This document shows, one piece after another, positions 16,331 to 58,081 of a stretch of DNA of 64,000 nucleotides. Under the pieces are notes generated by a model, which was not told the DNA's origin, ran no database searches, and was given only the letters and a program-made list of their open reading frames with translations. The DNA comes from an uncultured bacterium (GTDB lineage: Bacteria; Desulfobacterota_D; UBA1144; Nemesobacterales; UBA2774), in contig CAWGRW010000009.1 in the NCBI GenBank assembly GCA_963825135.1, positions 352,001 to 416,000 of the forward strand, in the 5' to 3' direction. Position 1 is the stretch's first letter. Each line of letters starts with the position of its first letter. Made by a program: the position numbers and the translations under genes.

Positions 16331-17240
16331 CAACCATACAGATCTTCAATCGGTTCTTGCGCCGGAAGCTGGACGCATATCAGTCGGAGAATAGACATTG
16401 TTGCAATTAACCTATGGCGTCCGATTCCTCCTATTCGTCGAAATCGTTCTCTCGGGGACGCAAAACTTTCCCTAAGCATAGTGGCTCTATTGCATTCTTC
16501 CAAAGGCGTCCGGTTCTTGCGCATCGCTCAGAAACCGTTCTCTCGGGGACGCAATAACTCAGTCCGGAGAATCAGTAACATTGTTGCAATTAACCTATGG
16601 CGTCCGATTCCTCCTATTCGTCGAAATCGTTCTCTCGGGGACGCATAACTCAGTCCGGAGAAAGAAGTGAATAACATGGCGTCCGATTTCCTATCTCTGT
16701 ACCATTCAGTCCGGTTAACATGGCAAAGTCGACTAGTCGAAACGTCCGGGACGCATAACTCAGTCCGGAGAATAGAACATTGTTGCAATTAACCTATGGC
16801 GTCCGATTCCTCCATTCGTCGAAATCGTTCTCGGGGACGCATAACTCAGTCGGAATAGAACAGCTGGATCTATTCGTCGAAATCGGGGACGCATAACAGT
16901 CCGGAGAATAGTAACATTGTTGCAATTAACCTATGGCGTCCGATTCCTCCTATTCGTCGAAATCGTTCTCTCGGGGACGCATAACTCAGTCCGAAGAATA
17001 GTAACATTGTTGCAATCAACCTAAGGCGTCCAATTGCTCACTTGTTCGCAATTGTTTCTCGGGGACGCAGCAATTTACCAAAGTACAGTGACCATGTTGC
17101 ATTCTTTCAAAGGCGTCCAATTTAGTTTGGTTTCAGTAGATCATCCCGAGAACATTGGCATTGTTGCAATTAGCATAGGGCGACCGGTTTCTCACTTGCT
17201 CGAAACCGTTACTTGTTCGCAATTGTTTCTCGGGGACGCA
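16321..17240 (+). repeat. Tandem array of ten ~88-92 nt units, each ending in a copy of the tRNA-Arg 3' end (CTCTCGGGGACGCA)
   Basis: GGACGC at 16326 (tRNA), 16371, 16456, 16547, 16639, 16749, 16835, 16887, 16975, 17063, 17234; intact unit = GGACGCA-~43 nt-GGCGTCC-hairpin-GTT-CTCTCGG; some units truncated or noisy. Confidence 0.9.
17123..17210 (+). mobile_element. 88-nt element nested in the hairpin of the last array unit
   Basis: TAGTTTGGTTTCAG...GACC-GGTTTC(TCACTTGCTC)GAAACC-GTT interrupts AATT[GCTC]ACTTGTTCGCAATT. Confidence 0.7.
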
Positions 17241-17298
17241 CACACAATGTATGCTCATAGAGGTTTCCTATGAAACTCTTCCTATTTCCCAGGTAGCC

Positions 17299-17328
17299 TA
17301 GGAGCGGCTTCCAGCCGCAACCTTTTTT
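17299..17328 (+). terminator. REP-like hairpin with T-tract; candidate terminator of the tRNA-array transcript
   Basis: TAGGA-GCGGCT-TCC-AGCCGC-AACC-TTTTTT. Confidence 0.45.
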
Positions 17329-17501
17329 CGAAGTGCTGAGTCAGGGTTGCCAATTGACAATGTCCTCCAATTGTTCATTATCCCGGAATCGTTAATGCAC
17401 ATTATATAAGATGGGGGACGCGGCCGGCAGGATGCACCGATATTTTCAATTTCTTAAAAAATTAGTCTGTCATAATCAAAAAATATCATTATAATTCGGG
17501 G

Positions 17502-19281
17502 ATGATGAAATCCGTTCTACCCATTCTGTTGATACTTCTGTTTGCACTTTCCTGCGACTCCTCAGGTCCCGGAAACTCGGCGAACGTTTTCGGAGACAAT
17601 GTGCCCGATCCGGATGCAGTCGCCGAGGGCCCTGTCGAGAGCGACGTAGTCCTGGACATCGTACTCGGGCTCGCGCGCTCTCAGGATAGTCTCGCCGAGA
17701 GAGTCGATGAGCTCCACGATCCGGGCTCCCCTCATTATCACGATTTCAGGAGCGTTCCGGAGATCGCCGAGGAGTTCGGGGCCGACGATTCGGCAATAAA
17801 GACAGTGCAGGAATACCTGGACGGGCTTGGCATTTCCTTGACCGCCGATGCCACAAAGGGATTTCTTCACGGCCGGGCGACGGCTGCGCAGCTGGATCAG
17901 CTTTTCGACACGGAGCTTTTTTATTACAAGATAGACGAAGGCACTTTTATTGCGCCCTCGATAGCGCCTTCGCTCCCCGCGGCGCTTAACGGACTTGTGA
18001 CGGAGGTTCTGGGTTTAAGCACCGAGCCTTCTCTCTGGGAAATCTCCCCATCCGACAGATTCCGAGACCGCTCTCGGCCCATCCGTTGCAATCGACACGC
18101 CGGGCTCCCCGACAGTCACGGGGACCCGCGAGGGGTGCGCCGACGCCCTCAAGCAAAAAGGCTTCACCCCGAACCAGTTTCGAACGGCTTACGGGATCGA
18201 TGACCTTCACGAGCTCGGTTTCGAAGGGCAGGGCATCACAATGGCCCTCGTCGAGGGAACCAGTTTCGAGCAATCGAATATCGATAAGTTCACATCCTGT
18301 TTCGGAATTTCCAATCCCGTCGTTCCGACGGTCGTCCAGCTGGGAAGCGACGAGCTCAAACCCGACGGAGAACCGTTTCTCGATATTGAAACAGCTCTAA
18401 TGATCGCCCCCAAGCTCTCGGGGCTTTACGTTTTTCAAGAGAAACTCAATTCCCTGGCCGACTGGATCACGCTCTTCTCCGCGCCGCTCAACACCAAGCA
18501 CACGGCGGGGGTTCCCGTGCAGATAATGTCGGGGAGTCTCGGAAACTGCGAGGTCAAATGGGGGTTTGCGGCAATTAGTACGCTGGAATTCGTATTCATG
18601 AACGCGGCAGCTTCAGGGGTGCACGTGTTTATCTCCGCGGGAGACAGCGGCTCGTCCACATGTTTCCACCACGATAAAAAGACCAAGACCAAGTCCGCCG
18701 AGTATCCCGCGTCGTCGCAATACGTCACAGGCGTCGGCGGGACTAACCTTGCGCTCAATGAGGACAACACGATCAAGGGAGAGGGCGTATGGAACGACCA
18801 GGATTTCCCCGCTCCCTACAACAAAAAGTTTGGAGCCGGCGGCGGCGGCAAAAGCATGTTCCTCTCGAGACCTCTCTGGCAGAAGGGAACGAAAATAAAG
18901 GGCTTCAGGAGGACGACGCCCGACGTGGCATTCTTCGCCGATCCTTTTCCGGGCTACGTCATAAACGACTCGCTGAAAGGCTGGTTCGATAACGGGGGCA
19001 CGAGCGCCGCGACGCCGTTTTTCGCCGCGTCCATGGCCCTCGTGCTCCAGGCCGCGAAGGAAAACGACGTAACCCTCGACCTCACTTACGAGCTAATCTA
19101 CAAGCTCGCGAACAGCGACGCCTACGACGGGGTTTTTCAGGACGTGGTCATAGGGAATAACGACCTCTTCGACGTCGGCTGCTGCACTGCGGGACCGCGT
19201 TACGATATGGCAAGCGGGTGGGGATCGCTCAACATCAATTCCCTGGCCGAAGTCTTGATCCCGGGGTTGGGGAACCGATAG
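17502..19281 (+). CDS. S53 (sedolisin/kumamolisin) serine protease lipoprotein with pro-domain, split by a frameshift near 18055
   Basis: LFALSC lipobox, pro-kumamolisin-like region, GFTPNQFRTAYGI in the shifted frame, catalytic EPFLD, SAGDSG, GGTSAATP, Ca-site DVVIGNN..YDMASGWG. Confidence 0.85.
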
Positions 19282-19303
19282 TTTAGGTTATTAAGGTTTT
19301 ATT

Positions 19304-22174
19304 CTAAGACGCATCAAGCAATTCCCGAACCTTTCGAAGAAAGGTCCGGGGCGTGAAAGGCTTCCCGAGGTATCCGAAACCCCGCTCCTGTTCTCCGGAT
19401 TGAAAAATGGACTCCCTCGTGTAACCGGATATATACAGCACCTTCATCTCAGGATGGATATCCAGGAGTTCTTTCACAAGCTCCGGACCGTTCATGCCGG
19501 GCATTACCACGTCGGTTACCAGCAGATGAATCGGATCGGCGTACTTGTCGCAGATTTGAAGCGCTTCGATACAGTCCCGCGATTCCATTGCCTTATAACC
19601 GCTGTCCTTCAGCACCATGCTGAGAATATTCCGGACCGTGCCTTCATCTTCGACAAGGAGCACGGTCTCGCTGCCTCCCAGCGGTTTCTCCGCTGCAGGC
19701 TCTTCTTTCCCGGCGGGTTCGGCGCCCGAATCCGCTCGCGGCAGGTATATCCTGAACGTCGAGCCCTTGCCGACCTCGCTCATGACCGTAATATGTCCCT
19801 TGCTCTGACTCACGATCCCGAAAGTGGTAGCCAGCCCCAGCCCCGTGCCCTGGCCTATGTCCTTGGTCGTGAAGAAGGGCTCGAAGATGCGGGATATGGT
19901 CGGCTCATCCATCCCGCGCCCGGTGTCGCTGGCGCTTATAACGGCATACTCGCCCGGTTTAACCTCATCGCGCCGATCCGTGTTATTCTCGTCCAGATAG
20001 ACGTTCGTCGTGCTTAGAGTAAGCCTGCCCCCCTCCGGCATCGCGTCTCTGGCATTAATAAGGAGGTTCATGATAGCCTGCTCGAGCTGTCCCCTGTCGG
20101 CTTTTACATGCCAGAGCTCCGGACGCAGGTCGGTTATGAACTCTATATTCGCCGGAAGCAGTCTCCCGAACATCTTCCCCAGGTCGGAAATTACATGGTT
20201 CAGGTTCAGAACCGTTAATTGGAAGACCTGTCTGCGTCCGAGGGCCAGGAGCCGATTGGTCAGCGCAGCGGCGCGTTCGCCTGCCTTTTGTATCTCCATG
20301 ATGTTCGCCCGGAGCCCGTCGTCGATGCTCTCCTGCTCCAGTACGAGGTCGCTATAAGACGCTATGACCGTCAGCAGGTTGTTGAAGTCGTGTGCGACCC
20401 CGCCTGCCAGGTTCCCTATCGCCTCCATTTTCTGCACCCTGCGGAGCTGCTCCTCGAGTCTTTTCCTTTCGGTTATGTCCGTAACGAAGCCCTCGATGTA
20501 AGGAGGCCCACCGTCTTCCGGATAAATGCCTCTGCCCTTGTCCCAGACCCATTTCTCCTCTCTCGCTTTAGTAATAATCCTGTAAACCAGGTCGAACTGC
20601 TGGCGCTTTCCGAGTGCGGTCAGGGCATCCTCCCACACGCGTCCCCGGTCGTCAGGGTGTATTAGATTGGAGTACTTGACCTCCCTCGTAACAACAAATT
20701 CTTCAGGGGCGTAGCCTGTTAGCGCGGATACCCCTTCGCTGATGAAATCAAGCGTCCAGTATTTGTCGTATTTGCAGCGGTAAGAGCATCCCGGGAGGTT
20801 GCCGAGGAGCGTCGACAACATCCGCTCGTTCTCCCTGAGGGCTTCTTCGGCCTGCTTACGGTCCGTGATGTCCTCAACGACTCCCATACCGCCGATAACC
20901 GTCCCTCCGGCATCGAGCAGGGGAGAGTAGTGAAGAGACAGCCACAGCTTGACTGGAGATGTCGTAGCTTCATAAACACCTTCGTGATAGGAAGGCGTTC
21001 CTTCAGTAGCGGTTTTCATCGCATTTAAAAAACTCTTGTCCTTTAACGTATTCATATCGAGGCCGATAATCTTTTCAAGTGACGATTGCAGTATGTCGCT
21101 CAGGCGTTCATTACATTGTGTTATCCTCAGTTCCTTATCAAATATAAAAACTCCTACGGGCGACTGGTCGAAGAGGATGCGGTACCGCTCTTCCGAACGC
21201 CTGAGCGCCTCTGCCACCTGAGCCTTTTGTATCGCTCTCACCACCATTTGCGAAACGATCCCCAGCATTTTTAACTCTTCGTCGTCAAACGCGTCTTTCT
21301 TGAGAGAATCTATCTTTATCACGCCGGTTACGCTGCCGTCGGTGCGGATCGGCATCGAGACGATGCTCTTCGTTCCCAATTTCCTCCCGGCGGGTCCGAG
21401 GACGGAATCCAGGTCCGCGTCCTCACAGTACAATATGGGATTTCCGTCGAGAATCGCCTTCCACGTAAAGCCCTTCGGGTACGGGATCCTCCCGGCGCGC
21501 TCGATGAACCATCCGGGATAACCCCTCTCGGCCATCATGACGGCGTCGTTACCCTCAACGAAATAAATCGAAACGAAGTCGCAGCCCTTGATGTTCTTGT
21601 TTATCATCTCAACCGTGACTTCGAGTATGTCACCCACGCGGGCGTACTCCGATATGCTCCTGTTAATTTCGTTGATTATCGTCTCGTGGCTGCTCTTCTT
21701 CGACAGCCGCGCGATGCTCCTGTTGAGCTCATCGACCATGCGCCTGCTCTCCGTGACGTCACGGAAGCTGCACACTATTCCGACAACTTCGCCTTCGGAT
21801 AACCGGGGGTTACAGTGTTGCTCGAAGACCCTCCCGTCCTTGAGCTCGATAACGTCGCTGCCGGGTTGCCCGGGGTTCTCTTCCATTTGCCTCAGTTTCT
21901 TGAGTACCGCATCCGGGTCTTTCACGACCGAAAGGACGAAAGCGAACACGCGGTTGAAATCCCCGCCCTCCAGCTCGGACTCGGGTATCCCCCACATGTC
22001 TATCAGCTTCCTGTTAATGTAGGTTATATTTCCCGACCTTCCTCTGGCGATAATACCGTCCGCTGTCGCCTCCAGTGTCGCGTGGACGAGGGAAGGCGCT
22101 TCCTCGAGATTAGCCTTCGTCAGATCCCGAGGGTCGTCATTGAGCTGTTTTTTTGTTTTAGTTCCGTCTTTCAA
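19304..22174 (-). CDS. Hybrid PAS/GAF/PAS/PAS sensor histidine kinase-receiver (CckA-like)
   Basis: AHDFNNLL H-box, NARDAM, FFTTK, GTGLGL, C-terminal REC (VEDE, TDVVMP, KPF). Confidence 0.9.
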   Translation of the reverse strand: MKDGTKTKKQLNDDPRDLTKANLEEAPSLVHATLEATADGIIARGRSGNITYINRKLIDMWGIPESELEGGDFNRVFAFVLSVVKDPDAVLKKLRQMEENPGQPGSDVIELKDGRVFEQHCNPRLSEGEVVGIVCSFRDVTESRRMVDELNRSIARLSKKSSHETIINEINRSISEYARVGDILEVTVEMINKNIKGCDFVSIYFVEGNDAVMMAERGYPGWFIERAGRIPYPKGFTWKAILDGNPILYCEDADLDSVLGPAGRKLGTKSIVSMPIRTDGSVTGVIKIDSLKKDAFDDEELKMLGIVSQMVVRAIQKAQVAEALRRSEERYRILFDQSPVGVFIFDKELRITQCNERLSDILQSSLEKIIGLDMNTLKDKSFLNAMKTATEGTPSYHEGVYEATTSPVKLWLSLHYSPLLDAGGTVIGGMGVVEDITDRKQAEEALRENERMLSTLLGNLPGCSYRCKYDKYWTLDFISEGVSALTGYAPEEFVVTREVKYSNLIHPDDRGRVWEDALTALGKRQQFDLVYRIITKAREEKWVWDKGRGIYPEDGGPPYIEGFVTDITERKRLEEQLRRVQKMEAIGNLAGGVAHDFNNLLTVIASYSDLVLEQESIDDGLRANIMEIQKAGERAAALTNRLLALGRRQVFQLTVLNLNHVISDLGKMFGRLLPANIEFITDLRPELWHVKADRGQLEQAIMNLLINARDAMPEGGRLTLSTTNVYLDENNTDRRDEVKPGEYAVISASDTGRGMDEPTISRIFEPFFTTKDIGQGTGLGLATTFGIVSQSKGHITVMSEVGKGSTFRIYLPRADSGAEPAGKEEPAAEKPLGGSETVLLVEDEGTVRNILSMVLKDSGYKAMESRDCIEALQICDKYADPIHLLVTDVVMPGMNGPELVKELLDIHPEMKVLYISGYTRESIFQSGEQERGFGYLGKPFTPRTFLRKVRELLDAS

Positions 22175-22531
22175 CCGTAGCCGCCTTTATATGGACCCCG
22201 CACGCATCAAAACCGCTTCCATTTTCCAAATACAGCAAGATGAATTTGCGGGTTATTGTTAACCGTACAAAACAAACGTCGATACATTAAGGATATGATA
22301 TCCGTATCCGCATCCAAACTCATTAAGGACGGAAAAAACGATCGACGCCTTCCGGCAGCGATCAATTATGTGCACACTTTACGGTAAATTGTATCGGGTT
22401 AAACACGAAGCGACCCGGAATTGACGGACTTGACGGACTACGCATGGAATAACCGCAGCACTTATGACGAAACCCTGTAATTATGACGCGCTCGAGATAA
22501 TGAGCATCCTCGAATCAATGGGAACGAGGGG

Positions 22532-28927: not shown

Positions 28928-28933
28928 AATAAC

Positions 28934-31052: not shown

Positions 31053-34000
31053 TTATTTTTCTTTCCTCTTTCCCTTGGGCTTCGACTTTTTCGCGATGAA
31101 ATTCTTCAGCTCCGCGAGGTCGGGCGCGAGCAGGTCCTTCACCCTCTCGGTGTTGACCCTGGCCACGATGATGTGGCCGATCTCGGTGTTGACCTCGTCG
31201 TATATCCCCATTGCTTTCATCCCCTGAGCCTGCTTCTGGTTGTCGTCGGTCGGGCTCACGTAGTGTACGGAGACCGCCTTGTACCTGTGTATCAGGAATA
31301 TATGGATGAGAGCCATGAGCCTCTTCTTGCGGAACTTGTCTTCGAAGGTATTCTGGTCCCTGATGGAAACGAAGTTGTTCCCCCAGCGGTCGTGTATGGT
31401 CGTGAAAATCGCGTCGGCCACCTTGTTCCCGGCCTCATCGGATACCGTAAGCTCGAGGAGCTCCGAGCCCGAGGTATGCGGCCGGAGCTTTACGCTCAGG
31501 CGTCCCGGTATGCCGTAGTGCTCCGACCAGAGCTCGAACCAGTCCTCCAGAAGCCTGGGCGGGACCTCGGTTTCGACCAGGTGCTGCACCTGTGTCGAGC
31601 CCTTGCCCATCGCGACCGTGGTCGCCGTACGCCCGGAAGAAGCGGCGAGCGCTCCGTCCAGACGGGGCCCTCCGACGAGCGTCTGGGGGGTCCTGTACGG
31701 GGAGTCGAGCAGCCTCAGCTTCCTCTGGAGCCTCGCGAGTGCGAGCATGCCGTCCTGCTTGAGAGCCGTGGCGAACTCCTCAGCGGCGAGACCGTCTATC
31801 TGGTGGCCGCCGTAGGTGATGAAGTCGAAAACATATCCGAGCTTACCGATTTCCTTCGGGAAGTTCCTCATCTCTTCCTCGCTCATGCCCGTCGTGTCCC
31901 AGTTAAAGGACGGCGACAGGTTGTAGGCGAGCATCTTGTCGGGAAACTCCGCGTGTACGGCTTCCGCGAATTCCCTGGCTTCCTCGTAGTTTGCCGTTTT
32001 GGTTTCCATCCATATTAAATCGGCGTAAGGGGCCACGGCGAGCGACTTCGCTATCGCGTATTCTATGCCGCCCTTTACCTGATAGTAGCCCTCGGGCGTC
32101 CTCGACAGCTCGCAGTCCCAGGGCGCCTCTATGCCCATATGCTTCGCCTTGTCCCTCGCGTGCTGGTAGGAGGCGTGTTTCGCGAATTCGAACCACTCCT
32201 CTATGGTCATCCCGAGGTTCCTGCCCTCTTCTATCGCGAACTCCATCTGCTCGGCGACCGCCTGGTCGTACGTCATAAGCCCGGATTCTACTTCCCAGGT
32301 CTCGACGAACTTGCTGGCCGCGTTCTCGAGCGGCTTGGTGATGCTCCTCTCCTTCCCTTCCTTGAGCGCCTGTATGCTCTTGTCGATAATAGGCGTGAGG
32401 CCCACCTTGTCGAACCACTCGTAGACCTCGTCGTACTCGGCGTCGGAGATATTGTAGAGCATAAAGCCGTTCACGTCCGTGATGCCCTTGTCGTAAAACC
32501 TCTTAAGAATCGCGAGATAACAGTTCTTGTATCCGGGTACGGTCGTGACGGTCGCTCCCAATATGAACGGCTGGTCGCGCTCGTCTCCCCTTCCGTCGAG
32601 GAGGTTTGCGGCCTCGGCGTCCGTACGGGCGACGATGATCCCCGGCACTTTCATAATGTCGAGCTGGAACCTCGCCGCGTTCAACCTCTTTATCTGCTCG
32701 TCAACAGGCACGAGCGCCTTCCCTCCCTGGTGGCCGCATTTCTTCGTGCCGGGCTTCTGGTCCTCTATGTGATACCCCGTCACGCCCGCTTCGACGAACC
32801 TCTTTATGAGGTTCCTGACGTGGGCGTCTCCTCCGTGCCCCGTGTCGGCGTCGGCTATTATGAACGGCCTGTAATCGACCTTGGGAGTGGCCTTCCTCTC
32901 CTTCTCCGACATGCGCGACCTCATGAACTTCTGGTTCCGGTCGGCCGTGAGGAGCGCGCGGACGAGCCCTGCAGCCTCATCGGGCACCTGGCTCAGCGGA
33001 TAGCTCGCGAGGTCCGGGCCCGGGTCTTCCGAGAGAGACCCTTTCGCGGACGTAGCCCATCCGCCGAGATATATCCCTTCTATGCCTATGCGCTTCATCG
33101 TCACTATCTGGCCCGGAGAATAGGGCCCGAACGTCGTTATCTGCTCGCCCCGGGCGAAGAGCTCCCGGAGCCTGGTGTAGAATTCCTCGGAATATTTCCT
33201 TGCCACCGTGTAGTCGTTTTCGATAGTGCCCGCCTGCTGCACGACCTGGCGCGCGGAGTAAAGACGCCTTATGCCCTTGAACCTCGGCCTCGCGAACCAG
33301 TCCTTCATCTCCCTCACCTCCCTTTCGAAGGAGTCGAGCTCGTCCTCGAGCGTGGTGTCGAGCCTCGAGTCGGGGAGGAAGTCGAGGTTCTCGGTGATCC
33401 TCGTGCCGTCCTTTTTGAACGCGTCCATGTACTGCTTTATCCTGATTTTCGCCGTCGAGAGGTCGTGGTTGTTGAGGTTCATGTTGAGGAGGTCGATGTA
33501 CCAGGGCGTCTTGATGTTATCGAGCACGTACGTCTCGACGATCTCCCTCGCTATCGGCAGAGTGGTGGGCTTGGAGTCGTCGTGGACGTCCTTGTCCTTC
33601 GCCTGGAGGAGCTTGTCGTATTCCTCGGCGAGGAGCCTCTCGAAGAGGTCCGAGGTGTATATGTCCCCCGCCTTTACACCGGTCTCGCTATCGTCCTCGG
33701 TCAGTACCGCGCCCTTGTCCACCCATTCCCAGAGAATGCTCAGGCGTATCTCGCCCGTAGCCATGTCTTCCATCAAGTACAGTATGTCGTCGTTGCCGAA
33801 GAAATCGGCCGGCTTGAGCGCCGCCGCCTGAAAACCCTGTCCGAAAGCGTTCCCGTACTGAAGGGCGACCGACATCAGGTTCCTTGCCCCCCTTATAGTC
33901 CGGGGCGCCGGCTCGAGCAGAGTGAGCCCGTCCGCGTCTTCGTCGGTATAGGTGAGCGGCGGGAATTTCCTTCCCATCTGGTTTTCCTGCCCCGCTTCTT

Positions 34001-35300
34001 CCCATACGGGCCTGATTATATGCACCATCTTCCAGTGCGCGACCCACTTCCCGCTCGCCCCCTCCTGCTGCTCACGCTTGGCCCCTTCGACCGCTTTCTT
34101 CATGCTTTCTTTTACGCCTTTATCCGAGCCTACGGGGATGTTGGGCTCCATGCCGCCCTGCCACAGCGCGTAGTTGTGGTTGACTCCGGGCGTGTTTACT
34201 GCTCTCCTGACCCGGTCCTCGTAATTCCTCATATAGCCGTACGTCATCGTTATCGATTCTATGTTCGGGTTAATGAACGACTGGTCCCACGCCATGGCGT
34301 CGGACACGCTGTTTATGTAATCCCACCTGCCGGTGTTGAACCCCACAAAATGTCTGCCCAGGGCCGCGCGTATCTCCATCAGCTGGAACGTGGCTTCGAG
34401 CTGCTCGATGAGGACGTACACCTTGATCGTGCCTAACGGGATGCTCAGGTGGTCCTCGAGCGCCGAAAGGAGCTCGTTCCAAAAGGCGGCCTCTTCAGCC
34501 GTCTGTATTTTGGGAAGGTACAGCACCACCGACGAGCCCGACTTATCGAGCTCCTGATAGTTATTTACGACGTAAAGGACGACGTCCACGATGGATGCCG
34601 AAAGCATGAGCCCGTTCTCGTCCCTGATGTGCCTGTCGTCGAGGTGGAGCCCCCTGGCCCTGAATATCTTGGTCGTGAAGTCGAGCTGTTTTCTCCAGTC
34701 TATGATTATGTCCCGCCCCAGAAACCCCTTCGCCCATTCGTTCATCTCGCGGGAGACCTGCTCGGCGACGTTCATGAACATGGGGTCTTTCCTGATGGCA
34801 AGCTTCAGATTCCTCTGGTTGTCGAGCGACATGGTGTTGATCTGACCGAGGGCGTCCTCGCCGTCGAACATCCAGCCGTCAGCGCCCGACAGCAGCGCGT
34901 ATGCGACGTTGCGTATGCTCTTGTCTATGGACGTATTCGGCTTGGCGGCCGGGCCCGTGCCCTGTACCCACTGCCTTTGGAGGTCGTGCGGCACTTCGGA
35001 GCCCACGAACTTGCCGTCCCGCGCGTCCTGCACCTTTATATTGGTGCGGGGAATGAAATCCGCCGGGTTGAGGAACCTTATCCTCTCCCTGTTGCGGTTG
35101 CGCTGCGCGCGCCTCGCGTACCGCTTTTCCATCAGCATCTTCTGGTCTTTATTGAATACCGAAAGCGCCTTTAGGGCTTCGAGTACCTGCGGCGTGTATA
35201 CGTCCGCATATTCGCTCTCGAGGTTGTTCCTTATCTGCAGATTCCTCGGGGCGGATACTGCCTTGAACGGCTGTTTAGAAATATCACGAACGGTGCTCAT
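31053..35300 (-). CDS. Bifunctional malate synthase - isocitrate lyase (ICL2-type) fusion
   Basis: N-half: [35 protein letters not shown] (malate synthase). C-half: [37 protein letters not shown] (ICL) plus ICL2-like C-terminal extension. Confidence 0.9.
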
Positions 35301-35633: not shown

Positions 35634-35725
35634 TAATCTGGTTTCAAATACCCTGTCGCTTCGATCAAGGGATTTCTTTGCTTTTAATCATCTCCGACCA
35701 ATTCCTCCGATTTGTCGGAATTGTT
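35634..35725 (+). mobile_element. Solo 92-nt hairpin-GTT element inside a REP-like palindrome
   Basis: TAATCTGGTTTCA...GACC-AATTCC(TCCGATTTGTC)GGAATT-GTT between AAATCCCCCT and CCCCTTTTCCAAAGGGGGA. Confidence 0.65.
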
Positions 35726-35816
35726 CCCCTTTTCCAAAGGGGGAAAGTAATTTTTGATTCCCTCCTTAGAAATAGGAGGGTTAGGGAGGATTTAATTATT
35801 CCTTTAAAAAATAGAC

Positions 35817-35879
35817 CATGGGACAGATGGGACATACGCGCGGAGTATATACCCGGATCATGTGTCCCAATGTCCCATG
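35817..35879. repeat. ~63-bp palindromic element, copy 1 (TGGGACA..TGGGACA-core-TGTCCC..TGTCCCA)
   Basis: Doubled terminal inverted repeats; core GTATATACCCGGAT shared with the copy at 43065. Confidence 0.7.
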
Positions 35880-42343: not shown

Positions 42344-42425
42344 ATCTTCATCCTCCCTCCTTTATAAAAAGACGGAGTTAAAAGCATTTTCCCCCTTTAG
42401 CAAAGGGGGATTCAGGGGGATTTAT
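42343..42425. repeat. REP-like palindrome cluster
   Basis: CCCCCTTTAGCAAAGGGGGATTCAGGGGGATTT; same type at 35758-35794 and 57881-57918. Confidence 0.65.
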
Positions 42426-43064: not shown

Positions 43065-43122
43065 TGGGACAATGGGACAGACGGGCAGGGTATATACCCG
43101 GATATTGTGTCCCGATGTCCCA
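43065..43122. repeat. ~58-bp palindromic element, copy 2
   Basis: TGGGACAATGGGACA...GTATATACCCGGAT...TGTCCCGATGTCCCA. Confidence 0.7.
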
Positions 43123-43165: not shown

Positions 43166-43255
43166 TAATTTGGCTCAGGCATCAATGAGCCGGAATTGAG
43201 CACAATGACGCTTTCGTTTTCACAGCGACCTGCTTCTCGCTCGCTCGAAGCAGTT
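43166..43255 (+). mobile_element. Solo 90-nt hairpin-GTT element inside a REP-like palindrome
   Basis: TAATTTGG...GACC-TGCTTC(TCGCTCGCTC)GAAGCA-GTT between CCCCACCCTACC and CCCCTCCAATAGAGGGAGAGGG. Confidence 0.65.
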
Positions 43256-43392: not shown

Positions 43393-44082
43393 ATGATGAG
43401 AAACGGAATTAATATCCTGCCGTTGATTATTTTCCTGTGTATGTCGATAGCCTTTTTCAGCCGCGAAGCCGACGCCCAGACTTACCTGCCCGTCGGGCCG
43501 CAGGTGGACGTTCCCGTCTCCGTCGTCTCCACGGGCGGATGGACGGAGTGTTACAGGGATACCTATGACAACCAACTGAACGCGGAAACCGTGCTTGAGC
43601 AATGTCCCGGCGAGCTCCTCATGTTGTCCTGCCGGCCGACCGGGAGCAGTACGCTGACCCTCCTCGCCCAGGGCGCGCGGGAGGATGTGACTTTCGATAC
43701 GGGCGCGAATTTGGATGTTACTCATATCGCAAACGGCGTCGGCTGGTATTTCAACATATCGGCTCCAGGTGAAAATAATCAAGGCCAGAACGCCTGGGGA
43801 TTCGTAAGGGCGGGGGACAGCGTGAACAAGAACAATTGCGATACCCTTGAGAGCGGCGCTAACGATGAAAGGCTATGCTGGCACCTGCTAATAGGCGAAG
43901 GCGGATACAGGTGCGGCGAGACAGAGGACCTGAACGAATCTACGGCGTTCGAGCGCGTCGTCTATACTCCGGCTGTGTCGAAGCCTATTCCCACTCTTTC
44001 CCAATGGGGCCTGATCGCTATGGCCGGCATTCTGGGTCTCGCCGGACTTCTGATCGCGAGAAGAAGGAAAGCGGCCGCGTAA
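43393..44082 (+). CDS. Secreted Cys-containing protein with IPTL-CTERM sorting signal
   Basis: Signal peptide; C-terminal PIPTLSQWGLIAMAGILGLAGLLIARRRK. Confidence 0.85.
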   Translation: MMRNGINILPLIIFLCMSIAFFSREADAQTYLPVGPQVDVPVSVVSTGGWTECYRDTYDNQLNAETVLEQCPGELLMLSCRPTGSSTLTLLAQGAREDVTFDTGANLDVTHIANGVGWYFNISAPGENNQGQNAWGFVRAGDSVNKNNCDTLESGANDERLCWHLLIGEGGYRCGETEDLNESTAFERVVYTPAVSKPIPTLSQWGLIAMAGILGLAGLLIARRRKAAA

Positions 44083-50221: not shown

Positions 50222-50576
50222 CTATAATCTCCTTCAACGAGAATTTGGTATTGTTTATAACAGGACGAATCTTAAATAACCCACCCGCCTATTATCTATT
50301 TTATTGGTTGCAATTCATTTATTCAAGTGAGTGAAGCCTTATTAACACCCCATTAATATTGCAATATTTAATCCGCTATATCCGCTCGTGCGCGGAAACG
50401 GCGCAAATCACGTCATTATCGCCCGGAAAAAAGCGCCGCAGGGCGTAAAAATTATATATTCCTTTGACGTATCGTTTTGTGCTATTATGTAATTAGATGG
50501 GCATGTAAGGTGTTTTGATTCCTTTGAGGGCGATTTGACTCGGGTGTAAAGAATCTGCAACAGGGGGTGAGCATCC

Positions 50577-51020: not shown

Positions 51021-51094
51021 TCCCTCGCGCGGGCGGGGCATACGGGCGGATTGAAACCCTTACGAATAAATAGAAGCTCCGACGGAAAATAATA

Positions 51095-51361
51095 ATGACT
51101 GAAGAAGAACGCACCGAAGAAATCAGGGAGAAGGCCGAGGCCGTAGAGGAAATGGTGGAGGCCAGGGAAGCGGAGCGAGCCCGCAAGCCCGGAACCCGCG
51201 GCCGCAACGGAAAAGGGCTCATGGAAAGGAGGGAGAGCTTCGAGCAGTCGAGCGTCCCCAACGCCCACAGGGGCTACAACAGCAAGACGCCCCGCATCAT
51301 GATGGTCATCATAGCGGCCATGTTCATACTGAGCTTCATCCTCGCCGCGATCACCGGCTGA
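51095..51361 (+). CDS. Small tail-anchored hypothetical protein
   Basis: Charged N-terminus and a C-terminal TM helix. Confidence 0.6.
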   Translation: MTEEERTEEIREKAEAVEEMVEAREAERARKPGTRGRNGKGLMERRESFEQSSVPNAHRGYNSKTPRIMMVIIAAMFILSFILAAITG

Positions 51362-51465
51362 CCGAAATTCCCCCGAAGCGCTACCCCGCGCGATAGATTC
51401 CATACACCTTCCATTTTCGTAACAATGTCAGTTAATCGGACCCGCCGGTTTGTCTGCTGTAACGA

Positions 51466-53292: not shown

Positions 53293-53523
53293 ACAGAGTC
53301 CCCGGGAATCCCCGTCTTTTATCGTTCCTTATCTATATCGATGAGTTATACATTCCTCGCGGCCCGCCCGGCAGTCGCCCGGCGGACATACCTGTCTTAA
53401 TTGTATGAACTTTCCGGTATTTAATCCAGAGGTATTCGGGCGCGGACGCAGAATCGGTAAAATTTCGCGGCGGAATGTAACTTGATTTCTGAATTCCCCG
53501 GCCGTCAGGGATACTAAAGGTAT

Positions 53524-54879: not shown

Positions 54880-54880
54880 C

Positions 54881-55366
54881 TCAAAATTCCTGCCTCCCGA
54901 AACCGAGCTTCCTTTCCAGGTAAACGACCCCACGGAGCGTCGCGAGCGTAATGATGGTCACGCCCACTGCAAGAAGGAGCTTGGATAGGGCGACGCAAAT
55001 TCCGACCGAGGCGACGAAGAGCAGCGCCGCCGCGGTCGTAAGACCCTTGACCCTGTCCTCCGAGCCTCGCCTGATTATCGTACCCGCCCCGAGAAAGCTC
55101 ACGCCCGTGATTATCGCGCCTATGATCCTGAGCGGGTCCGAGCCTAAAGCGACGTCGCTCAGGCCGAAGTCCGGGACCATGATCTTGCCTAGCGATACGA
55201 GGAGCGTCGCCGACCCGGCCACGAGCATGTGAGTGCGGATACCGGCGGGCTTGTCGGCGAGCTCCCGGTCGAAGCCCACGGCCGCACCCAGGAGCATGGA
55301 TATCAGGACGTACAGGAGTATCTTGAGCTCGAGCGGGAGGGAATTGATGATCTGCATGAAATCCAT
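54881..55366 (-). CDS. MgtC/SapB family protein
   Basis: KPAGIRTHMLV, DPLRI...IITGVSFLGAG, GLTTAA. Confidence 0.9.
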   Translation of the reverse strand: MDFMQIINSLPLELKILLYVLISMLLGAAVGFDRELADKPAGIRTHMLVAGSATLLVSLGKIMVPDFGLSDVALGSDPLRIIGAIITGVSFLGAGTIIRRGSEDRVKGLTTAAALLFVASVGICVALSKLLLAVGVTIITLATLRGVVYLERKLGFGRQEF

Positions 55367-55409
55367 TCTGCGAACCCCCCGGAATTAAGCGATTTTAAGA
55401 ATTGCGGCC

Positions 55410-55727
55410 CTATTCGCGGTCCATAAGCTTTCCCGCGAGCACGCCTATGAGGAAAGCGATCAATACGCTCAGCAGCGGTTTCCGGGTGATCCGGCTCTCG
55501 ACGGCGTCGATACCGCTGCCCCCCATCCTGCGCGCGCTTGCGAGTCCTCCGCCGAGCTCCGCGTGGAGCCTCTTCGCTTCGTGCCCGAGCCTCTTGTTCC
55601 CCGACTTGTAAGCCTTTCGGCTGATATCGAGTATGTTGTCGGAAACGTTCGAGAATTCGTGTCTCAGCCTCTGCACTTCGTCCTTTAGCGTATCGATGTT
55701 CTCTTTGACCCGTCCGTTATCTTTCAT
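55410..55727 (-). CDS. DUF883/ElaB-YqjD-like protein
   Basis: Helical N-terminus; I..KPL.SVLIAF..G.L.G C-terminal anchor. Confidence 0.65.
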   Translation of the reverse strand: MKDNGRVKENIDTLKDEVQRLRHEFSNVSDNILDISRKAYKSGNKRLGHEAKRLHAELGGGLASARRMGGSGIDAVESRITRKPLLSVLIAFLIGVLAGKLMDRE

Positions 55728-55872
55728 GTCCGTCTCCCTGTTGTTTTAAGTATGGAACTTGCGCTTATGGGTGTCAAGGAATATTTCACGAGGCGCGGTG
55801 GCACACATTGTGTGCTGATATACGGTTCTTCCGAACCCTCTTCCGCTAAATCAAGCGGAGGCGGCCCGCCGT

Positions 55873-55933
55873 CCCGTTTCGTCCCGGGCAGGAGCCTGTC
55901 CCGAGCTTGTCGAAGGCTCGAAGGATGAACGGG
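55873..55933. repeat. REP-like element (CCGTT(T)CGTCC..GAGCTTGTCGAAGG..GAACGGG type)
   Basis: Related inverted half at ~35897-35922 (CCTTAGACAGGCTCAGGACGAACGG). Confidence 0.55.
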
Positions 55934-55968
55934 TAAGATTATGCAGGGACGCCCCGGAGGGATTATAA

Positions 55969-55997
55969 TTGACATTGACCCGGAACATCTGTACTTT
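55969..55997 (+). promoter_or_regulatory. Sigma70-type promoter for tatA
   Basis: TTGACA-17 nt-TACTTT. Confidence 0.55.
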
Positions 55998-56017
55998 ATA
56001 TGTGGAGAGGTAACAGC

Positions 56018-56260
56018 ATGTTTGGACATTTAGGGCTACCAGAGCTTTTAATATTATTGGTGATTCTGCTATTAGTCTTCGGCCCCAGCAGGTTGGGTGA
56101 CCTCGGCTCTTCCCTGGGCAAGGGGATTAAGGGGTTCAGGAAATCCATGAAGGACGACGAGATAGACGTCACCCCCGGGAAGGAAGAATCGAAGAAGATC
56201 AACGACCCCAACCTCGAGACCACCGGCACTCCTTCCGAGAGCAAAAAGAACGTCCAGTAA
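56018..56260 (+). CDS. tatA: Twin-arginine translocase TatA/E subunit
   Basis: MFGHLGLPELLIILVILLLVFGPSRL..LG..LGKGIKGFRK. Confidence 0.9.
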   Translation: MFGHLGLPELLILLVILLLVFGPSRLGDLGSSLGKGIKGFRKSMKDDEIDVTPGKEESKKINDPNLETTGTPSESKKNVQ

Positions 56261-56391
56261 ATCCCCCGCCGTCAGTATCTAAAGTAAACCGGACCCGGCA
56301 GAACAACGGCACGGGAAAGTCTTATATACCGGACCAAACGCCCGAAGCAAAGGGATCGCGAAGAGTTAGCGCGCGAGCGCGGCCCCCCGGC

Positions 56392-57681
56392 CTACGCCCA
56401 CTCGCCCAGGGTCTTCCTCTCGAACGGGCATCCGCCCAGGCGCACATGGTCCTCGAACTCGTGACGGAATTTCTTGACTATAGATTCGATGGGCATGGCG
56501 CACCCGTCGGCGAGCGCGCAGATAGTGGTCCCCCTCATCTGAAAGCACGCGTCGAGCAGCGTGTCTATGTGCTCCATCCTCCCCTTCCCCTGCTCTATGT
56601 CCGTGAGCATCTTCTCAAGCCACCATGTGCCTTCCCTGCACTGAACGCACTGCCCGCAGGACTCGTCCCTGTAAAAATGGGCCAGGTTCTGGGCGACCCT
56701 CACCATGCACGTGGTGTCGTCCATCACCGTTACGCCCGCCGTCCCGAGCATCGATCCGACGGCGGCGAGGGAATCGAAATCCATCGTTATGTCGAGCTCG
56801 TCGGCCGAGAGCACGGCCGCCGAAGAGCCTCCGGGAGATACGGCTTTGACGCTCCTCCCGCCGGGTACGCCTTCCCCGTACTCGTTGATAAGACTGCGGA
56901 GCGTGATACCGAGAGGCAGCTCGTAGAGACCGGGCTTGTTAATATTGCCGCATAGGCCGTAGATCTTGGTGCCCGTGTTCTTGGGTATGCCTATGGAAGA
57001 GAACCACTCGGAGCCCCTGTTGATAATATGAGGGACGCACGCGAGCGTCTCCACGTTGTTTATGATGGTCGGGCATCCGAAGAGCCCTATCTGGGCGGGG
57101 AACGGCGGCTTCGGCCTGGGCTCTCCGTTCTTTCCTTCTATGGATTCGAGGAGCCCCGTCTCCTCTCCGCATATGTACGCGCCCGCGCCCCTGAAGAGCA
57201 CGATGTCGAGGTCGAATCCTGAATTGAGAATGTTCTTTCCGAGATAGCCCTTTTCGTACGCCTCCCTGATCGCGCCCTCTACAATCCCGGCGCCGTAGGG
57301 CATCTCTCCCCTTATATATATGTAAGACTTGTGCGAATTTATCGTGTAGCAGCCGATGATGATGCCTTCGAGCATCTGATGAGGGTCGCGCTCGAGTATC
57401 TCCCTGTCCTTGAAGCTCCCGGGCTCGCTCTCGTCGGCGTTGCAGCAGAGGTATATCGGTTTTTTGGAATCCCTCTGTATGAACCCCCACTTCACCCCGG
57501 TCGGGAACCCCGCGCCTCCCCTCCCCCTGAGGCCCGCCTTCTTTATCTCCTCTATTATTTCATCGGGTTTCATCCCGAGCGCCTTCGGGAGCGCCGTATA
57601 GCCGCCCCGGGATATGTACGAGCCTATGGTGTGCGAGTCGGGCACATCGACGTACGTGCGTAGTATTCTCAATTCGGGCAT
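56392..57681 (-). CDS. nuoF: NADH-quinone oxidoreductase subunit F
   Basis: GLRGRGGAGFP, NADESEPG, GAGAYICGEET, ESCGQCVQCREG, TICAL. Confidence 0.9.
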   Translation of the reverse strand: MPELRILRTYVDVPDSHTIGSYISRGGYTALPKALGMKPDEIIEEIKKAGLRGRGGAGFPTGVKWGFIQRDSKKPIYLCCNADESEPGSFKDREILERDPHQMLEGIIIGCYTINSHKSYIYIRGEMPYGAGIVEGAIREAYEKGYLGKNILNSGFDLDIVLFRGAGAYICGEETGLLESIEGKNGEPRPKPPFPAQIGLFGCPTIINNVETLACVPHIINRGSEWFSSIGIPKNTGTKIYGLCGNINKPGLYELPLGITLRSLINEYGEGVPGGRSVKAVSPGGSSAAVLSADELDITMDFDSLAAVGSMLGTAGVTVMDDTTCMVRVAQNLAHFYRDESCGQCVQCREGTWWLEKMLTDIEQGKGRMEHIDTLLDACFQMRGTTICALADGCAMPIESIVKKFRHEFEDHVRLGGCPFERKTLGEWA

Positions 57682-57990
57682 TTCATACCTCGGACACACA
57701 GGTGTGTTTTATGATTTCTTTGTGATCTCTCTGCAATCCCTGATATCGTCACCCTGAACTTGTTTCAGGGCCACATCTTTAAACCAACCCCAAAGAACCC
57801 CAGTAATTTTATATGGGTTTTACGAAGCATCAAGTTTGGATTAGCTTGCACTCCAGCGCACAAGAAGGTACGAAATAGATCTTCCCCCTTAGAAAAAGGG
57901 GGATTGAGGGGGATTTAAATTCATATTTTTGAGAGAAAAAATTAAGTGAAAGGAAATGAATAAAAGATAAATCCACCCTCACCCTGACCC

Positions 57991-58081
57991 TAATTTGGTT
58001 TTGGCAGCGTTGAGTCGGAAGTTAAGGTGCTTCTGTGTCTCTGATCTGGGTCAACCGAATGCTCACTTGCTCACATTCGTT
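57991..58081 (+). mobile_element. Solo 91-nt hairpin-GTT element inside a REP-like palindrome
   Basis: TAATTTGG...AACC-GAATG(CTCACTTGCTCA)CATTC-GTT between CCCTCACCCTGACCC and CCCTCAAGGGAGAGGG. Confidence 0.65.

Follow-up and report, generated by a model that had tools for sequence, protein, structure and literature searches.

The 64-kb stretch of DNA analysed here, which we call the window, contains non-coding, hairpin-ended elements of about 90 bases that form a real family. The family has apparently not been described before: a literature search for hairpin-ended ~90-nt elements found no description, and Rfam, whose use the original prediction had advised, gave no match either at the gathering threshold or at E<=1. 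We propose that these are non-autonomous DNA elements that depend on their hairpin and are mobilised in trans, a reading to which we give about an even chance of being correct.

Structure and distribution of the family

Four copies in the window stand alone (87-92 nt), and about nine more units follow a tRNA-Arg(CCT) gene. R1 denotes the covariance model used to score the copies. The solo copies and one relic are as follows.

17123..17210, + strand: solo copy c1, 88 nt (R1 53.7 bits)
17351..17393, + strand: doubtful relic of a 3' module, then a ..GGAATCGTT fragment (R1 15.7 bits, E=0.13)
35634..35725, + strand: solo copy c2, 92 nt, flanked by the two C-boxes of a REP-like element (sequence, R1)
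43166..43255, + strand: solo copy c3, 90 nt, within a C-rich/G-rich REP-like palindrome (sequence, R1)
57991..58081, + strand: solo copy c4, 91 nt, within a REP-like palindrome, CCCTCACCCT...AGGGAGAGGG (sequence, R1)

Solo copies and array units share a 3' module made of RGG-CGWCC, a 7-bp stem closed by an invariant C-G pair, a loop of 10-12 nt and TT. The G-TT at the 3' junction is also invariant, structure being kept rather than sequence. The complete element, 87-92 nt long and without coding capacity, would read from 5' to 3' as a head of ~14 nt, a subfamily-specific body of ~40 nt and this module, RGG-CGWCC, hairpin and terminal TT. The original prediction had placed the four solo copies, with their layout, exactly where we found them. 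Its stems do pair, but they measure 7 bp, and the array units, to which it gave the length of the solo copies, consist of 77 nt plus a 14-nt tRNA end. The TARTYTGG head that it included in the shared layout is not universal in the family, and its notion of variable cargo was wrong, as the interiors fall into a few subfamilies kept across genomes at ~75-85% identity. The supposed invisibility to sequence search is partial: blastn matched c2 to L022 (84.7% over 124 nt). The c2 subfamily has relatives in L022, L030 and L038, and c4 shares 82.5% identity with L016 over 126 nt. Within the window, none of the dispersed copies is nearly identical to another, so that recent transposition is not in evidence there.

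A strict scan of the 64 kb (C, a perfect stem of 6-7 bp, a loop of 8-14, G, TT, with C before) returned six sites on the + strand and none on the - strand; five are family copies and the sixth is the doubtful relic at 17351. From the window, R1 recovers ten modules at E<=3.9e-5, every one of them on the + strand, the relic being an extra at E=0.13. When the model was applied to relatives, as had been suggested, it scored 85 matches with E<0.001 across the family loci (195.5 kb), whereas the control loci (454 kb) contained nothing better than E=0.098. Reference genomes scanned with a pattern that specified the loop alone yielded 117 matches. Of these, 34 have a complementary stem (5/6 or 6/6), where a random rate of 0.46% per match predicts about 0.5; they belong without exception to 13 MAGs with labels such as Dadabacteria or Thermodesulfobacteriota. 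No fewer than 12 distinct stems occur, all paired, and changes are seen on both sides in 5 of 7 stem pairs; these compensatory changes bear out the view that the family is defined by structure. Its copies occupy unrelated intergenic sites in the 13 MAGs, and this presence of non-coding copies at unrelated loci in several genomes agrees with the original prediction.

One could imagine that the copies are functional small RNAs or regulatory DNA sites that benefit the host and arose by ordinary duplication. The conservation of the interiors between genomes and the covarying hairpin would fit, and the array could share a transcript with the tRNA. We nevertheless consider this very unlikely. Besides the lack of an Rfam match, RNAalifold supports the 3' hairpin only, and the folds of entire units have no clear stability advantage over shuffled sequences (z from -2.5 to +0.3). 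The window copies have no fixed orientation toward neighbouring genes, and copies are nested in each other and in other repeats. Moreover, stem mismatches comprise 27 C.A/A.C against 6 G.T among 476 positions, an asymmetry that partly reflects inherited variants (roughly 8 against 4 independent types). Read on the opposite strand, which in the array is antisense to the tRNA, the mismatches would thus be wobble pairs, and this is a hint of the single-stranded DNA stage in the reading that we favour. A second such hint comes from orientation: of 14 pairs of neighbouring copies separated by more than 400 nt, 13 have both copies on the same strand. In most loci, however, intact REPs point the same way as the elements, and the shared orientation may thus be a property of the host repeats. 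The GC skew, whose sign is inconsistent, counts against the favoured reading: the element lies on the G-rich strand in 16 of 22 loci and on the C-rich strand in the window.

Insertion junctions and the tRNA-Arg array

Related sites do differ by the presence or absence of an element, as the original prediction had anticipated. The window itself contains empty repeats.

35759..35793, - strand: intact REP-like element of a related type, AAATCCTCCC...GGAGGGA (sequence)
42390..42423, - strand: second intact REP-like element of the c2-host type (sequence)
57883..57916, - strand: intact REP-like element of the c2-host type (sequence)
59425..59627, - strand: empty palindrome-ended repeat of ~200 nt (comparison with other genomes)

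Between paralogous empty and filled sites, 87-91 nt are gained in place of ~4 nt (CCTC, TCTC, ATTC, CAGC), junctions being assigned to within about 1 nt. The insertions sit in the apical part of REP-like hairpins or in the hairpin of the element itself. For example, within one MAG, the locus L058 carries empty and filled copies of one repeat with matching flanks, and 91 nt replaces CAGC. A repeat of ~280 nt has an intact hairpin in four copies (L058, L092, L085, L038), and in its L114 and L066 copies an insert of 87-88 nt replaces CCTC. Likewise, c2 stands where intact copies of its host REP have CAAT or GAAT, the ~200-nt repeat that is empty in the window has a family member at its apex in other genomes, and each filled REP type lacks 3-4 nt at the junction relative to the intact type. 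Self-nesting and placement inside REP-like palindromes had both been proposed correctly, and the nesting position turned out to be fixed, with a shared geometry in 6 of 6 nested cases. In the window, c1 lies between nt 5 of the host unit's 5' arm and the last 8 nt of the loop, and replaces 4 nt, GCTC, as judged from the neighbouring unit.

A small and roughly constant target deletion, together with a structured 3' end conserved more precisely than the heads and short units that retain the 3' module alone, could also be produced by a SINE-type retro-element. Its hairpin-ended transcript would serve as template for a reverse transcriptase that is primed from a nick in the target, the deletion resulting from staggered cleavage of the second strand. 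This is the least probable of the readings that we considered. In the six nested cases the left junctions are as exact as the right ones, and the mismatch asymmetry suggests that the strand which folds is the one opposite to the supposed transcript. No reverse transcriptase was found in the window and 22 loci, and we know of no such element class in bacteria.

The array begins at the tRNA gene, whose last 14 nt, CTCTCGGGGACGCA (T below), are repeated after every unit. Nine intervals follow up to 17240, each closed by the repeated 3' terminus of the tRNA, (C)TCTCGGGGACGCA; their lengths in order are 130, 91, 92, 110, 86, 52, 88, 88 and 171 nt, and TRF gives periods of 91 and 90.

16257..16331, + strand: tRNA-Arg, anticodon CCT (ARAGORN; Rfam tRNA 69.8 bits)
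16333..16462, + strand: degraded unit fragment, A-type unit (3' module 16412-16448) and T (R1 40.3 bits)
16463..16553, + strand: B-type unit (77 nt) and T; 3' module 16501-16539 (R1 E=3.9e-5)
16554..16645, + strand: A-type unit and T; 3' module 16595-16631 (sequence, R1)
16646..16755, + strand: rearranged or degenerate interval of unit fragments with a partial T at its end and without an intact 3' module (no R1 match)
16756..16841, + strand: A-type unit and shortened T; 3' module 16794-16829 (sequence, R1)
16842..16893, + strand: 52-nt unit with an internal deletion, and partial T (sequence)
16894..16981, + strand: A-type unit and T; 3' module 16931-16967 (sequence, R1)
16982..17069, + strand: A-type body with another hairpin (stem AATTGC/GCAATT) and T; 3' module 17021-17056 (R1 55.7 bits)
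17070..17240, + strand: last unit, B-type, and T; hairpin split by the nested c1 (sequence; L015 comparison)

The 5' head of the array units is the tRNA 3' end. Solo copies can be aligned over their whole length with T plus a unit, as c1 can with array units and the tRNA end. In L015, a syntenic locus, the orthologous array has 2 units, compared with 9 in the window. The nested pair formed by the last unit and c1 is present in both (window 17057-17240 against L015 3877-4061, 86.5% identity), tRNA-proximal in L015 and distal in the window.

Another explanation, unlikely in our view, is that these are recombination-driven repeat arrays resembling the neisserial NIMEs, spread among copies of one repeat without transposition. 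A site-specific recombinase or nuclease, perhaps an IS110/Piv-type enzyme or the small GIY-YIG nuclease beside two arrays, would then bind or cleave the hairpins and REP-like palindromes, acting through recombination or nuclease-stimulated gene conversion (homing). Indeed, each copy sits in a repeated context, and subfamily, hairpin stem and type of host repeat go together. T-unit-T arrays have periods of 88-102 nt, and the aligned bases of the array A units are all identical, the differences being indels only. The junction oddities are constant per context, as expected for copies of a founder. Two small GIY-YIG genes, 95% identical and on one contig (L020, L104), are each followed by the palindrome REP2 next to unit arrays. 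However, GIY-YIG adjoins only 2 of the roughly 10 REP2-context sites seen, and no IS110-type gene was seen in the window or 22 loci. The loop diversity in the right flanks of filled REPs equals that of empty REPs, which suggests independent insertions, and a similar loss of ~4 nt in at least five unrelated contexts favours a mechanism over founder accidents. Passive conversion also leaves the constant length of ~90 nt and the conserved covarying hairpin unexplained.

Finally, a small circular, probably single-stranded unit may have been integrated site-specifically by a tyrosine- or integron-like recombinase, as in tRNA-targeting islands and integron cassettes. The hairpin-GTT would be the recombinase site and the adjoining head or T the crossover region. 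The choice of the tRNA 3' end as target, the restoration of the end of the gene, tandem accretion, the invariant G-TT at a junction conserved in structure rather than sequence, and the short direct repeats around many copies (CCCCCT, CCCTAAT, the 10-11 nt GGGAATGACA, the 14-nt tRNA end) are consistent with such a route. It seems improbable, since the flanking repeats vary from 0 to 14 nt, most sites lose target bases (the exceptions being the T-unit-T arrangements of the tRNA and of some REP2 arrays, which lose none), the 5' and 3' ends show no inverse-core pairing, the element as a whole is not a palindrome, and no integrase gene was found in about 260 kb.

Candidate enzymes and comparison with known systems

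The original prediction had named an HUH/Y1 enzyme, an IS110-family recombinase or a reverse transcriptase as candidate mobilisers; none was seen in the 64-kb window and 22 flanking loci (~260 kb in total). Pfam searches of 38 window ORFs and 116 ORFs of the 22 loci, and NCBIfam searches of 28 unassigned ORFs, revealed no transposase, integrase or reverse transcriptase, which counts against the reading that we favour.

The account of Neisseria (PMC1797815) describes dRS3, ATTCCC-N8-GGGAAT, flanking RS elements of 50-150 bp in dynamic arrays, and reports NIME arrays as not seen outside Neisseria. Both systems have intergenic arrays of 50-150 nt units with short inverted-repeat separators, array length varies between related genomes in both, and a recombinase is proposed in both, its role in array formation not being established; REP2, which reads ATTCCCG, 9-11 nt, CGGGAAT, resembles dRS3. 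In contrast, the present units each have a conserved covarying hairpin end, a near-constant length and sequence-variable stems, occur also singly inside other palindromes, nested in themselves and at a tRNA end, and are hosted by MAGs of the Dadabacteria lineage.

REP, BIME and REPIN sequences are likewise short interspersed repeats that do not code for protein, form hairpins and keep a conserved motif where the stem begins on its 5' side. They are presumed to be mobilised in trans by an enzyme acting on single-stranded DNA, for REPs the HUH Y1 protein RAYT, and they pass vertically through a lineage (PMC3116915, PMC3337134). A REPIN consists of two inverted REPs making one long hairpin, whereas here one hairpin of 24-26 nt terminates a 90-nt unit on one side, and the body of the unit is conserved but not palindromic; no RAYT gene was seen in the DNA examined, and the elements sit inside REP-like palindromes.

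Like IS200/IS605 elements and PATEs, the family has neither terminal inverted repeats nor target duplication, and it shares with them a subterminal hairpin, a short conserved stretch at its 5' foot and local co-orientation on one strand. In copies at the tRNA, the GCGTCC of the hairpin foot is the complement of a GGACGC located 10 nt beyond the hairpin on its 3' side, which recalls the pairing of guide and cleavage site in IS200/IS605. Unlike in IS200/IS605, there is one conserved hairpin rather than one per end, target bases are replaced instead of being retained as a constant motif on the left flank, covariation between foot motif and flanks is absent except at the tRNA, and no Y1 transposase was seen in the DNA examined. 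Integron attC sites and cassettes offer structure recognition, a G-TT junction and tandem arrays at about 60-140 nt, whereas our elements have unpaired ends without an inverse core, no integrase or cassette ORFs, and copies within other repeats. Tandem accretion and insertion at a tRNA 3' end are shared with tRNA-targeting integrative elements, and in both systems the carried copy of the tRNA 3' end keeps the gene intact; the present units, however, are 91 nt long, lack an integrase and also use non-tRNA targets. Replacement of ~4 target nt is not known for IS200/IS605, IS91, IS110, integron or DDE mechanisms, which likewise counts against the favoured reading.

What the data show directly is that the copies belong to one family with a conserved structure, where they have inserted, how they nest and how the array has changed. 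Under the trans-mobilisation that we favour, an enzyme encoded elsewhere would read the hairpin end as folded single-stranded DNA and insert the element at the exposed apices of other hairpin-forming DNA. As a first guess, this enzyme could be of the HUH/Y1 type or another hairpin-specific nuclease or recombinase. Its targets would be REP-like palindromes, the T-arm and 3' end of tRNA-Arg and the hairpins of fellow family members, the insertion point being a short pyrimidine-rich core, mostly YCTC, of which ~4 nt would be replaced. As every copy lies in a repeated context, spread through recombination between repeats is also possible. The array may have been built, in a direction of growth that we infer, from repeated insertions at the tRNA together with local duplication. 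There, the survivors would be only those elements that carry a copy of the tRNA 3' end as their head, because such elements rebuild the gene.

The 3' module, its hosts and its strand

The four solo copies put forward in the original prediction, members of a family of ~90-nt hairpin-ended non-coding elements, were confirmed as described in the window sequence:

17123-17210 (+), solo copy c1
35634-35725 (+), solo copy c2
43166-43255 (+), solo copy c3
57991-58081 (+), solo copy c4

All copies carry the same 3' module, which consists of RGG-CGWCC, a 7-bp stem with an invariant C-G closing pair, a loop of 10-12 nt (typically TC...TC) and a final TT. In a strict hairpin scan of the window, module sites appeared solely on the + strand; the - strand gave none. 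Reference genomes were searched with a pattern that specified the foot motif, a single loop type and GTT but placed no constraint on the stem. Among the 117 matches listed, the stem positions were complementary at 6/6 in 27 cases and at 5/6 in 7; with a chance of 0.46% per match, about 0.5 paired stems were expected against the 34 found among those listed. These 34 were traced to 13 MAGs, six of them under the label Candidatus Dadabacteria, three under Thermodesulfobacteriota and the rest under 'delta proteobacterium', 'uncultured bacterium' and 'uncultured Spirochaetia' (2). The remaining listed matches, mainly from Micromonospora and Duganella, had unpaired stems and were discarded as chance or gene-internal. 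The host genomes are all MAGs, and both census and host range are lower bounds, as they come from a single genome scan seeded by one loop type. In a 40-module alignment, pairing reached 96%, with compensatory changes in 5/7 pairs; because its rows from other genomes were preselected for pairing, the unbiased test is the count of 34 among the 117 matches listed.

The covariance-model scan proposed with the original prediction was also productive. The model of the 3' module (R1) gave 98 hits at E<=1, 85 of them at E<0.001, in 195.5 kb comprising the window and 35 family loci, and loop types other than the seed were common among these hits. On 454 kb from 58 non-family loci, its best hit was no better than E=0.098. 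Rfam returned only the tRNA, both for the window at the gathering threshold and for 15 loci plus window 16200-17500 at E<=1, and blastn against plasmid and phage collections gave no match for c4 or for an A-type unit of the tRNA array. Synteny with the window at ~86-87% nucleotide identity was found for loci L015 (12.7-17.3 kb), L066 (52-56 kb) and L022 (61.9-64 kb). This places the window in the same Dadabacteria-related lineage, but outside these particular MAGs.

The interiors had been thought to be variable cargo; they instead form a small number of subfamilies that are conserved from one genome to another:

c3 and c4
c2
copies with the core GAGCGGTACYGGAT
c1, the A and B array units and every nested copy
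apical copies in a palindrome-ended repeat of roughly 280 nt

RNAalifold, run on 15 members of one subfamily, supports the 3' hairpin alone, and when whole units were folded as DNA their two ends did not pair. The c1-subfamily solo copies (86-90 nt) can be aligned end to end with an array unit preceded by T, the repeated tRNA 3' end (91 nt together). By this alignment, the 14-nt head is the tRNA end in array units and a TAGTTTGGTTTCA-like sequence in solo copies. A loop-to-body pseudoknot was rejected: in 67 copies, the longest complementary stretch between a copy's loop and its own body averaged 4.15 nt, and shuffled loops gave 4.05 +/- 0.10. Body and right flank did show excess complementarity (5.29 versus 4.72 +/- 0.11); the foot motif was nevertheless rejected as a general programmable guide, since the excess is explained by REP arms and by GCGTCC/GGACGC in the tRNA context, and the W of CGWCC does not track the flank. 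Mini-units of ~45 nt, made of GGGAATGACAG, 8-10 nt, the hairpin and GTT and devoid of body and CGWCC foot, recur in arrays beside the REP2 palindrome:

L002 ~3950-4000 (-), mini-unit
L104 331-376 (+), mini-unit
L014 ~1525-1580 (-), mini-unit
L010 ~4228-4282 (-), mini-unit

The 476 stem positions of 68 distinct modules comprise 440 Watson-Crick pairs, 27 C.A or A.C, 6 G.T and 3 other. The complement may be the folding strand, because a C.A here corresponds to a G.T wobble there; the mismatch excess, which rests on roughly 8 versus 4 independent variants, is a hint only. In the array, the complement runs antisense to the tRNA, an argument for single-stranded DNA over RNA. The family may alternatively be a functional RNA. 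Adjacent copies more than 400 nt apart lie on the same strand in 13/14 pairs (p=0.002), and intact host REPs are likewise mostly co-oriented. The window has three filled REPs on the + strand and four empty ones on the - strand, while elsewhere filled and empty REPs mostly share an orientation. Replication strand as read from GC skew was tried and rejected: 16/22 loci (>=2 kb) had one sign, the window and five others the opposite.

Host hairpins, junctions and the tRNA-Arg array

All copies examined lie within repeated hairpin-forming surroundings, as follows:

Hosts and the bases replaced in them
Several C-box/G-box REP-like palindromes
REP1a (type hosting c2): CAAT / GAAT replaced
REP1b: TCTC (or CTC) replaced
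REP2 (ATTCCCG, 9-11 nt, CGGGAAT and a GACAG tail): ATTC replaced
REP3 (GATTGCCGCG...CTCGCAATGAC palindrome): CCTC replaced
REP4 (apex of the roughly 280-nt repeat): CAGC replaced
Hairpin of another family member: CCTC / GCTC replaced
tRNA-Arg end

In every context of replacement, 3-4 nt are exchanged for 87-92 nt that start with T(A/G/C/T)nTT and end with CGTT, with junctions placed to within about 1 nt. The comparison of empty and filled REPs, suggested at the outset as a way to define the ends, yielded both intact and filled versions of the hosts. The two cleanest cases are L058, where one MAG has both an empty copy and a filled one whose flanks match, and the ~280-nt repeat, whose hairpin is intact in L058, L092, L085 and L038 and carries an 87-88 nt insert between CCGATT and ACTT in L114 and L066. 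When the host is a family member, the position is fixed: in all six nested cases (window c1, L015, L003, L111, L114 and L066), the left junction follows nucleotide 5 in the 5' arm of the host, and the right junction lies 8 nt ahead of the 3' arm. No target duplication was found at the nested sites or at the L058 site, and flanking direct repeats, where there are any, range from 4 to 14 nt. L066 and the window at 55.8 kb were rejected as an empty/filled pair, their ~230-nt difference including another palindrome. Empty hosts in the window are:

57883-57916, empty host
42390-42423, empty host
35759-35793, empty host
59425-59627, empty host

The last of these is a copy of a ~200-nt repeat bounded by terminal inverted repeats of roughly 17 nt (CCGACTACAGAATTTGC... 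/ ...GCAAATTCTGTAATGTCGG) and containing an inner palindrome; in some copies of the repeat, a 91-nt family member occupies the apex. Identity to the window copy is mostly 88-92%, and 80-83% for L038 and one L058 copy:

window 59425-59627 (-), ~200-nt repeat, empty
L003 3484-3685 and 7295-7493, ~200-nt repeat
L058 4999-5161 and 6764-6965, ~200-nt repeat
L008 1701-1822, ~200-nt repeat
L038 2705-2863, ~200-nt repeat

A second layout, in which no bases are lost, consists of T-unit-T arrays at the tRNA and beside REP2, with periods of 88-91 and 100-102 nt; in the REP2 arrays only the 3' half of REP2 stands between units. The array in the window lies behind the following gene:

16257-16331, tRNA-Arg(CCT)

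The interval 16333-17240 is divided into nine, each of which ends by repeating the final 12-14 nt of the tRNA (T = CTCTCGGGGACGCA). A regular unit has 77 nt plus T, that is 91 nt (periods 91 and 90 by TRF), and part of the nine intervals are deleted or rearranged. Four A-type units are identical at all aligned bases and differ only by indels; the two B-type units have an interior unlike that of the A-type. The orthologous array in L015 has two units only. A c1-like nested copy sits in a B-type unit that is the first in L015 and the ninth, and last, in the window, and both arrays finish with T followed by an identical palindromic flank. The two arrays fit a growth in which new units were added beside the intact tRNA and A units were also duplicated locally; such growth would further require that the window lost a distal unit, so that the polarity is suggested rather than proven. 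The T-arm region of the tRNA-Arg (...GAAT CCTC TCGG...) includes the commonest target core, and the tRNA-Ala of L003, a single negative case, has neither this arrangement nor an array.

Several motifs were noticed in the neighbourhood. The near-palindrome GCACACAATGTGTGC lies directly 3' of the tRNA-Arg array in the window and L015 and recurs intergenically elsewhere; the interspersed motif ...CCTTCGACAAGCTCAGGAC...GAACGG is often directly 3' of family copies; and GGGACA(N)ATGGGAC motifs stand beside c2 and c3. In L103, a short family unit is flanked on both sides by a related motif, ATTCGTCCCAT. A 1415-aa ORF with malate synthase and isocitrate lyase domains, a fused glyoxylate-shunt enzyme, occupies window 31053-35300 (-).

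window 17241-17253 (+) and 55802-55814 (-), GCACACAATGTGTGC
L015 4151-4163 and 4252-4264, GCACACAATGTGTGC
L066 359-371, GCACACAATGTGTGC
L058 6706-6718 and 7160-7172, GCACACAATGTGTGC
window 55900-55914 (-), CCTTCGACAAGCTCAGGAC motif
L066 277-291, CCTTCGACAAGCTCAGGAC motif
L017 3041-3055, CCTTCGACAAGCTCAGGAC motif
L019 1786-1800, CCTTCGACAAGCTCAGGAC motif
L058 4111-4125 and 5432-5446, CCTTCGACAAGCTCAGGAC motif
window 35820-35833 (+), 35864-35876 (-) and 43066-43078 (+), GGGACA(N)ATGGGAC

Known systems and the search for a mobiliser

REPINs are two inverted REPs in one long hairpin, with a linked RAYT (Y1 HUH) gene flanked by repeats, whereas the family has a single 7-bp hairpin at its 3' end. 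PATEs derived from IS200/IS605 have a subterminal hairpin at each end, lack terminal inverted repeats and target duplication, and insert 3' of a short, fixed target, which they retain without base loss. The family likewise has neither terminal inverted repeats (its ends are TAnTT... and ...CGTT) nor target duplication, but it conserves the 3' hairpin only and replaces ~4 nt in the self, REP1a, REP1b, REP2, REP3 and REP4 contexts. The terminal inverted repeats and fixed-length target duplication of MITEs of DDE transposons are both absent. An integron attC site has paired core and inverse core at its ends and is an imperfect palindrome over its whole length; in the family only the terminal G-TT resembles a core, and the ends are unpaired. 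The ~4-nt replacement, the single hairpin and the tRNA-mimicking head set the family apart from REPINs, IS200/IS605 derivatives, MITEs and attC sites. Elements that target tRNA genes integrate at the tRNA 3' end, regenerate that end and encode their own integrase. Insertion with a regenerated end is present here; in contrast, the units are non-coding, 91 nt long and without their own integrase. For the arrays, the closest analogue is probably the neisserial NIME, whose repeat units form arrays and are flanked by the 20-bp dRS3 inverted repeat (PMC1797815). REP2 resembles dRS3, with the same 6-nt arms and a longer spacer, and the way in which NIMEs form is likewise unsettled.

Pfam assigned only housekeeping functions in the window (38 ORFs), with no transposase, integrase or reverse transcriptase, and found no recombinase of any class among 116 ORFs of 22 loci, nor did NCBIfam among 28 unassigned ORFs. 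No Y1 transposase domain was present among the 38 and 116 ORFs, and no integrase domain, as of an integron integrase, in the window or the 22 loci. Regeneration of the tRNA end may also reflect a small circle integrated by a tyrosine-type recombinase, and the family may be a retro-element; the window and loci searched revealed no gene for the former, and the window none for the latter. A protein family recurrent in the flanks (L006, L056, L058) was rejected as mobiliser, since it consists of IPTL-CTERM secreted proteins. Such proteins adjoin family copies in four genomes, one directly downstream of c3, a proximity of which long intergenic regions may be the sole cause:

window 43393-44082 (+), IPTL-CTERM protein
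L056 1281-2624, IPTL-CTERM protein
L006 1332-1940, IPTL-CTERM protein
L058 2-2566, four tandem IPTL-CTERM ORFs

The one suggestive neighbour is a gene for a small GIY-YIG nuclease (Pfam E=1.4e-15; 120 aa as called, ~97 aa from the likely start), of which the Dadabacteria contig JADLGH010000099.1 has two copies of 95% identity:

L020 4161-4451 (+), GIY-YIG gene
L104 1-198 (+), GIY-YIG gene

Both have the REP2 palindrome ATTCCCG...CGGGAATGAC directly 3' and adjoining unit arrays. RAYT genes sit between REPs, and the L020 gene, flanked by inverted REP2 copies, resembles them in this respect. The link may be to REP2 and not to the 90-nt family, because such a gene is missing from the vicinity of most REP2-context sites. 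With the copies lying in repeats, nuclease-stimulated gene conversion among repeats may also be considered. Literature searches on GIY-YIG with REP, YhbQ and non-autonomous, hairpin or tRNA elements, and on Dadabacteria repeats and non-autonomous REP, tRNA and tandem elements, returned nothing relevant.

Interpretation and significance

The family is best fitted by a non-autonomous DNA element mobilised in trans. The hairpin end of the element would be the recognition signal, and the apical region of other DNA hairpins would be the target. A bolder reading, which we regard as unlikely, is a new transposition chemistry, in which a 90-nt single-hairpin element enters specifically the exposed apices of folded DNA hairpins (REP-like palindromes, a tRNA T-arm and its own hairpin), a 4-nt YCTC core is replaced, and lineages that target tRNA carry a gene-restoring head. 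The mobiliser would then belong to an enzyme class so far unconnected with elements of this kind, for example a small stand-alone GIY-YIG nuclease with inverted REP flanks or a target-primed reverse transcriptase.

The family offers a practical marker in MAGs of the Dadabacteria lineage and is an annotation hazard, with spurious ORFs and contig breaks possible. Bacterial genomes commonly carry small non-autonomous repeats, among them REPs, REPINs and NIMEs, and to our knowledge how these move is mostly unknown. The present family provides unusually clean handles: its hairpin end covaries, its empty and filled sites are exact, its self-nesting occurs at one fixed position, and the growth of its tRNA array can be traced between relatives. 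If the ~4-nt apex replacement is enzyme chemistry, it defines a testable mechanism and may hint at a new class of DNA-inserting enzymes specific for hairpins.
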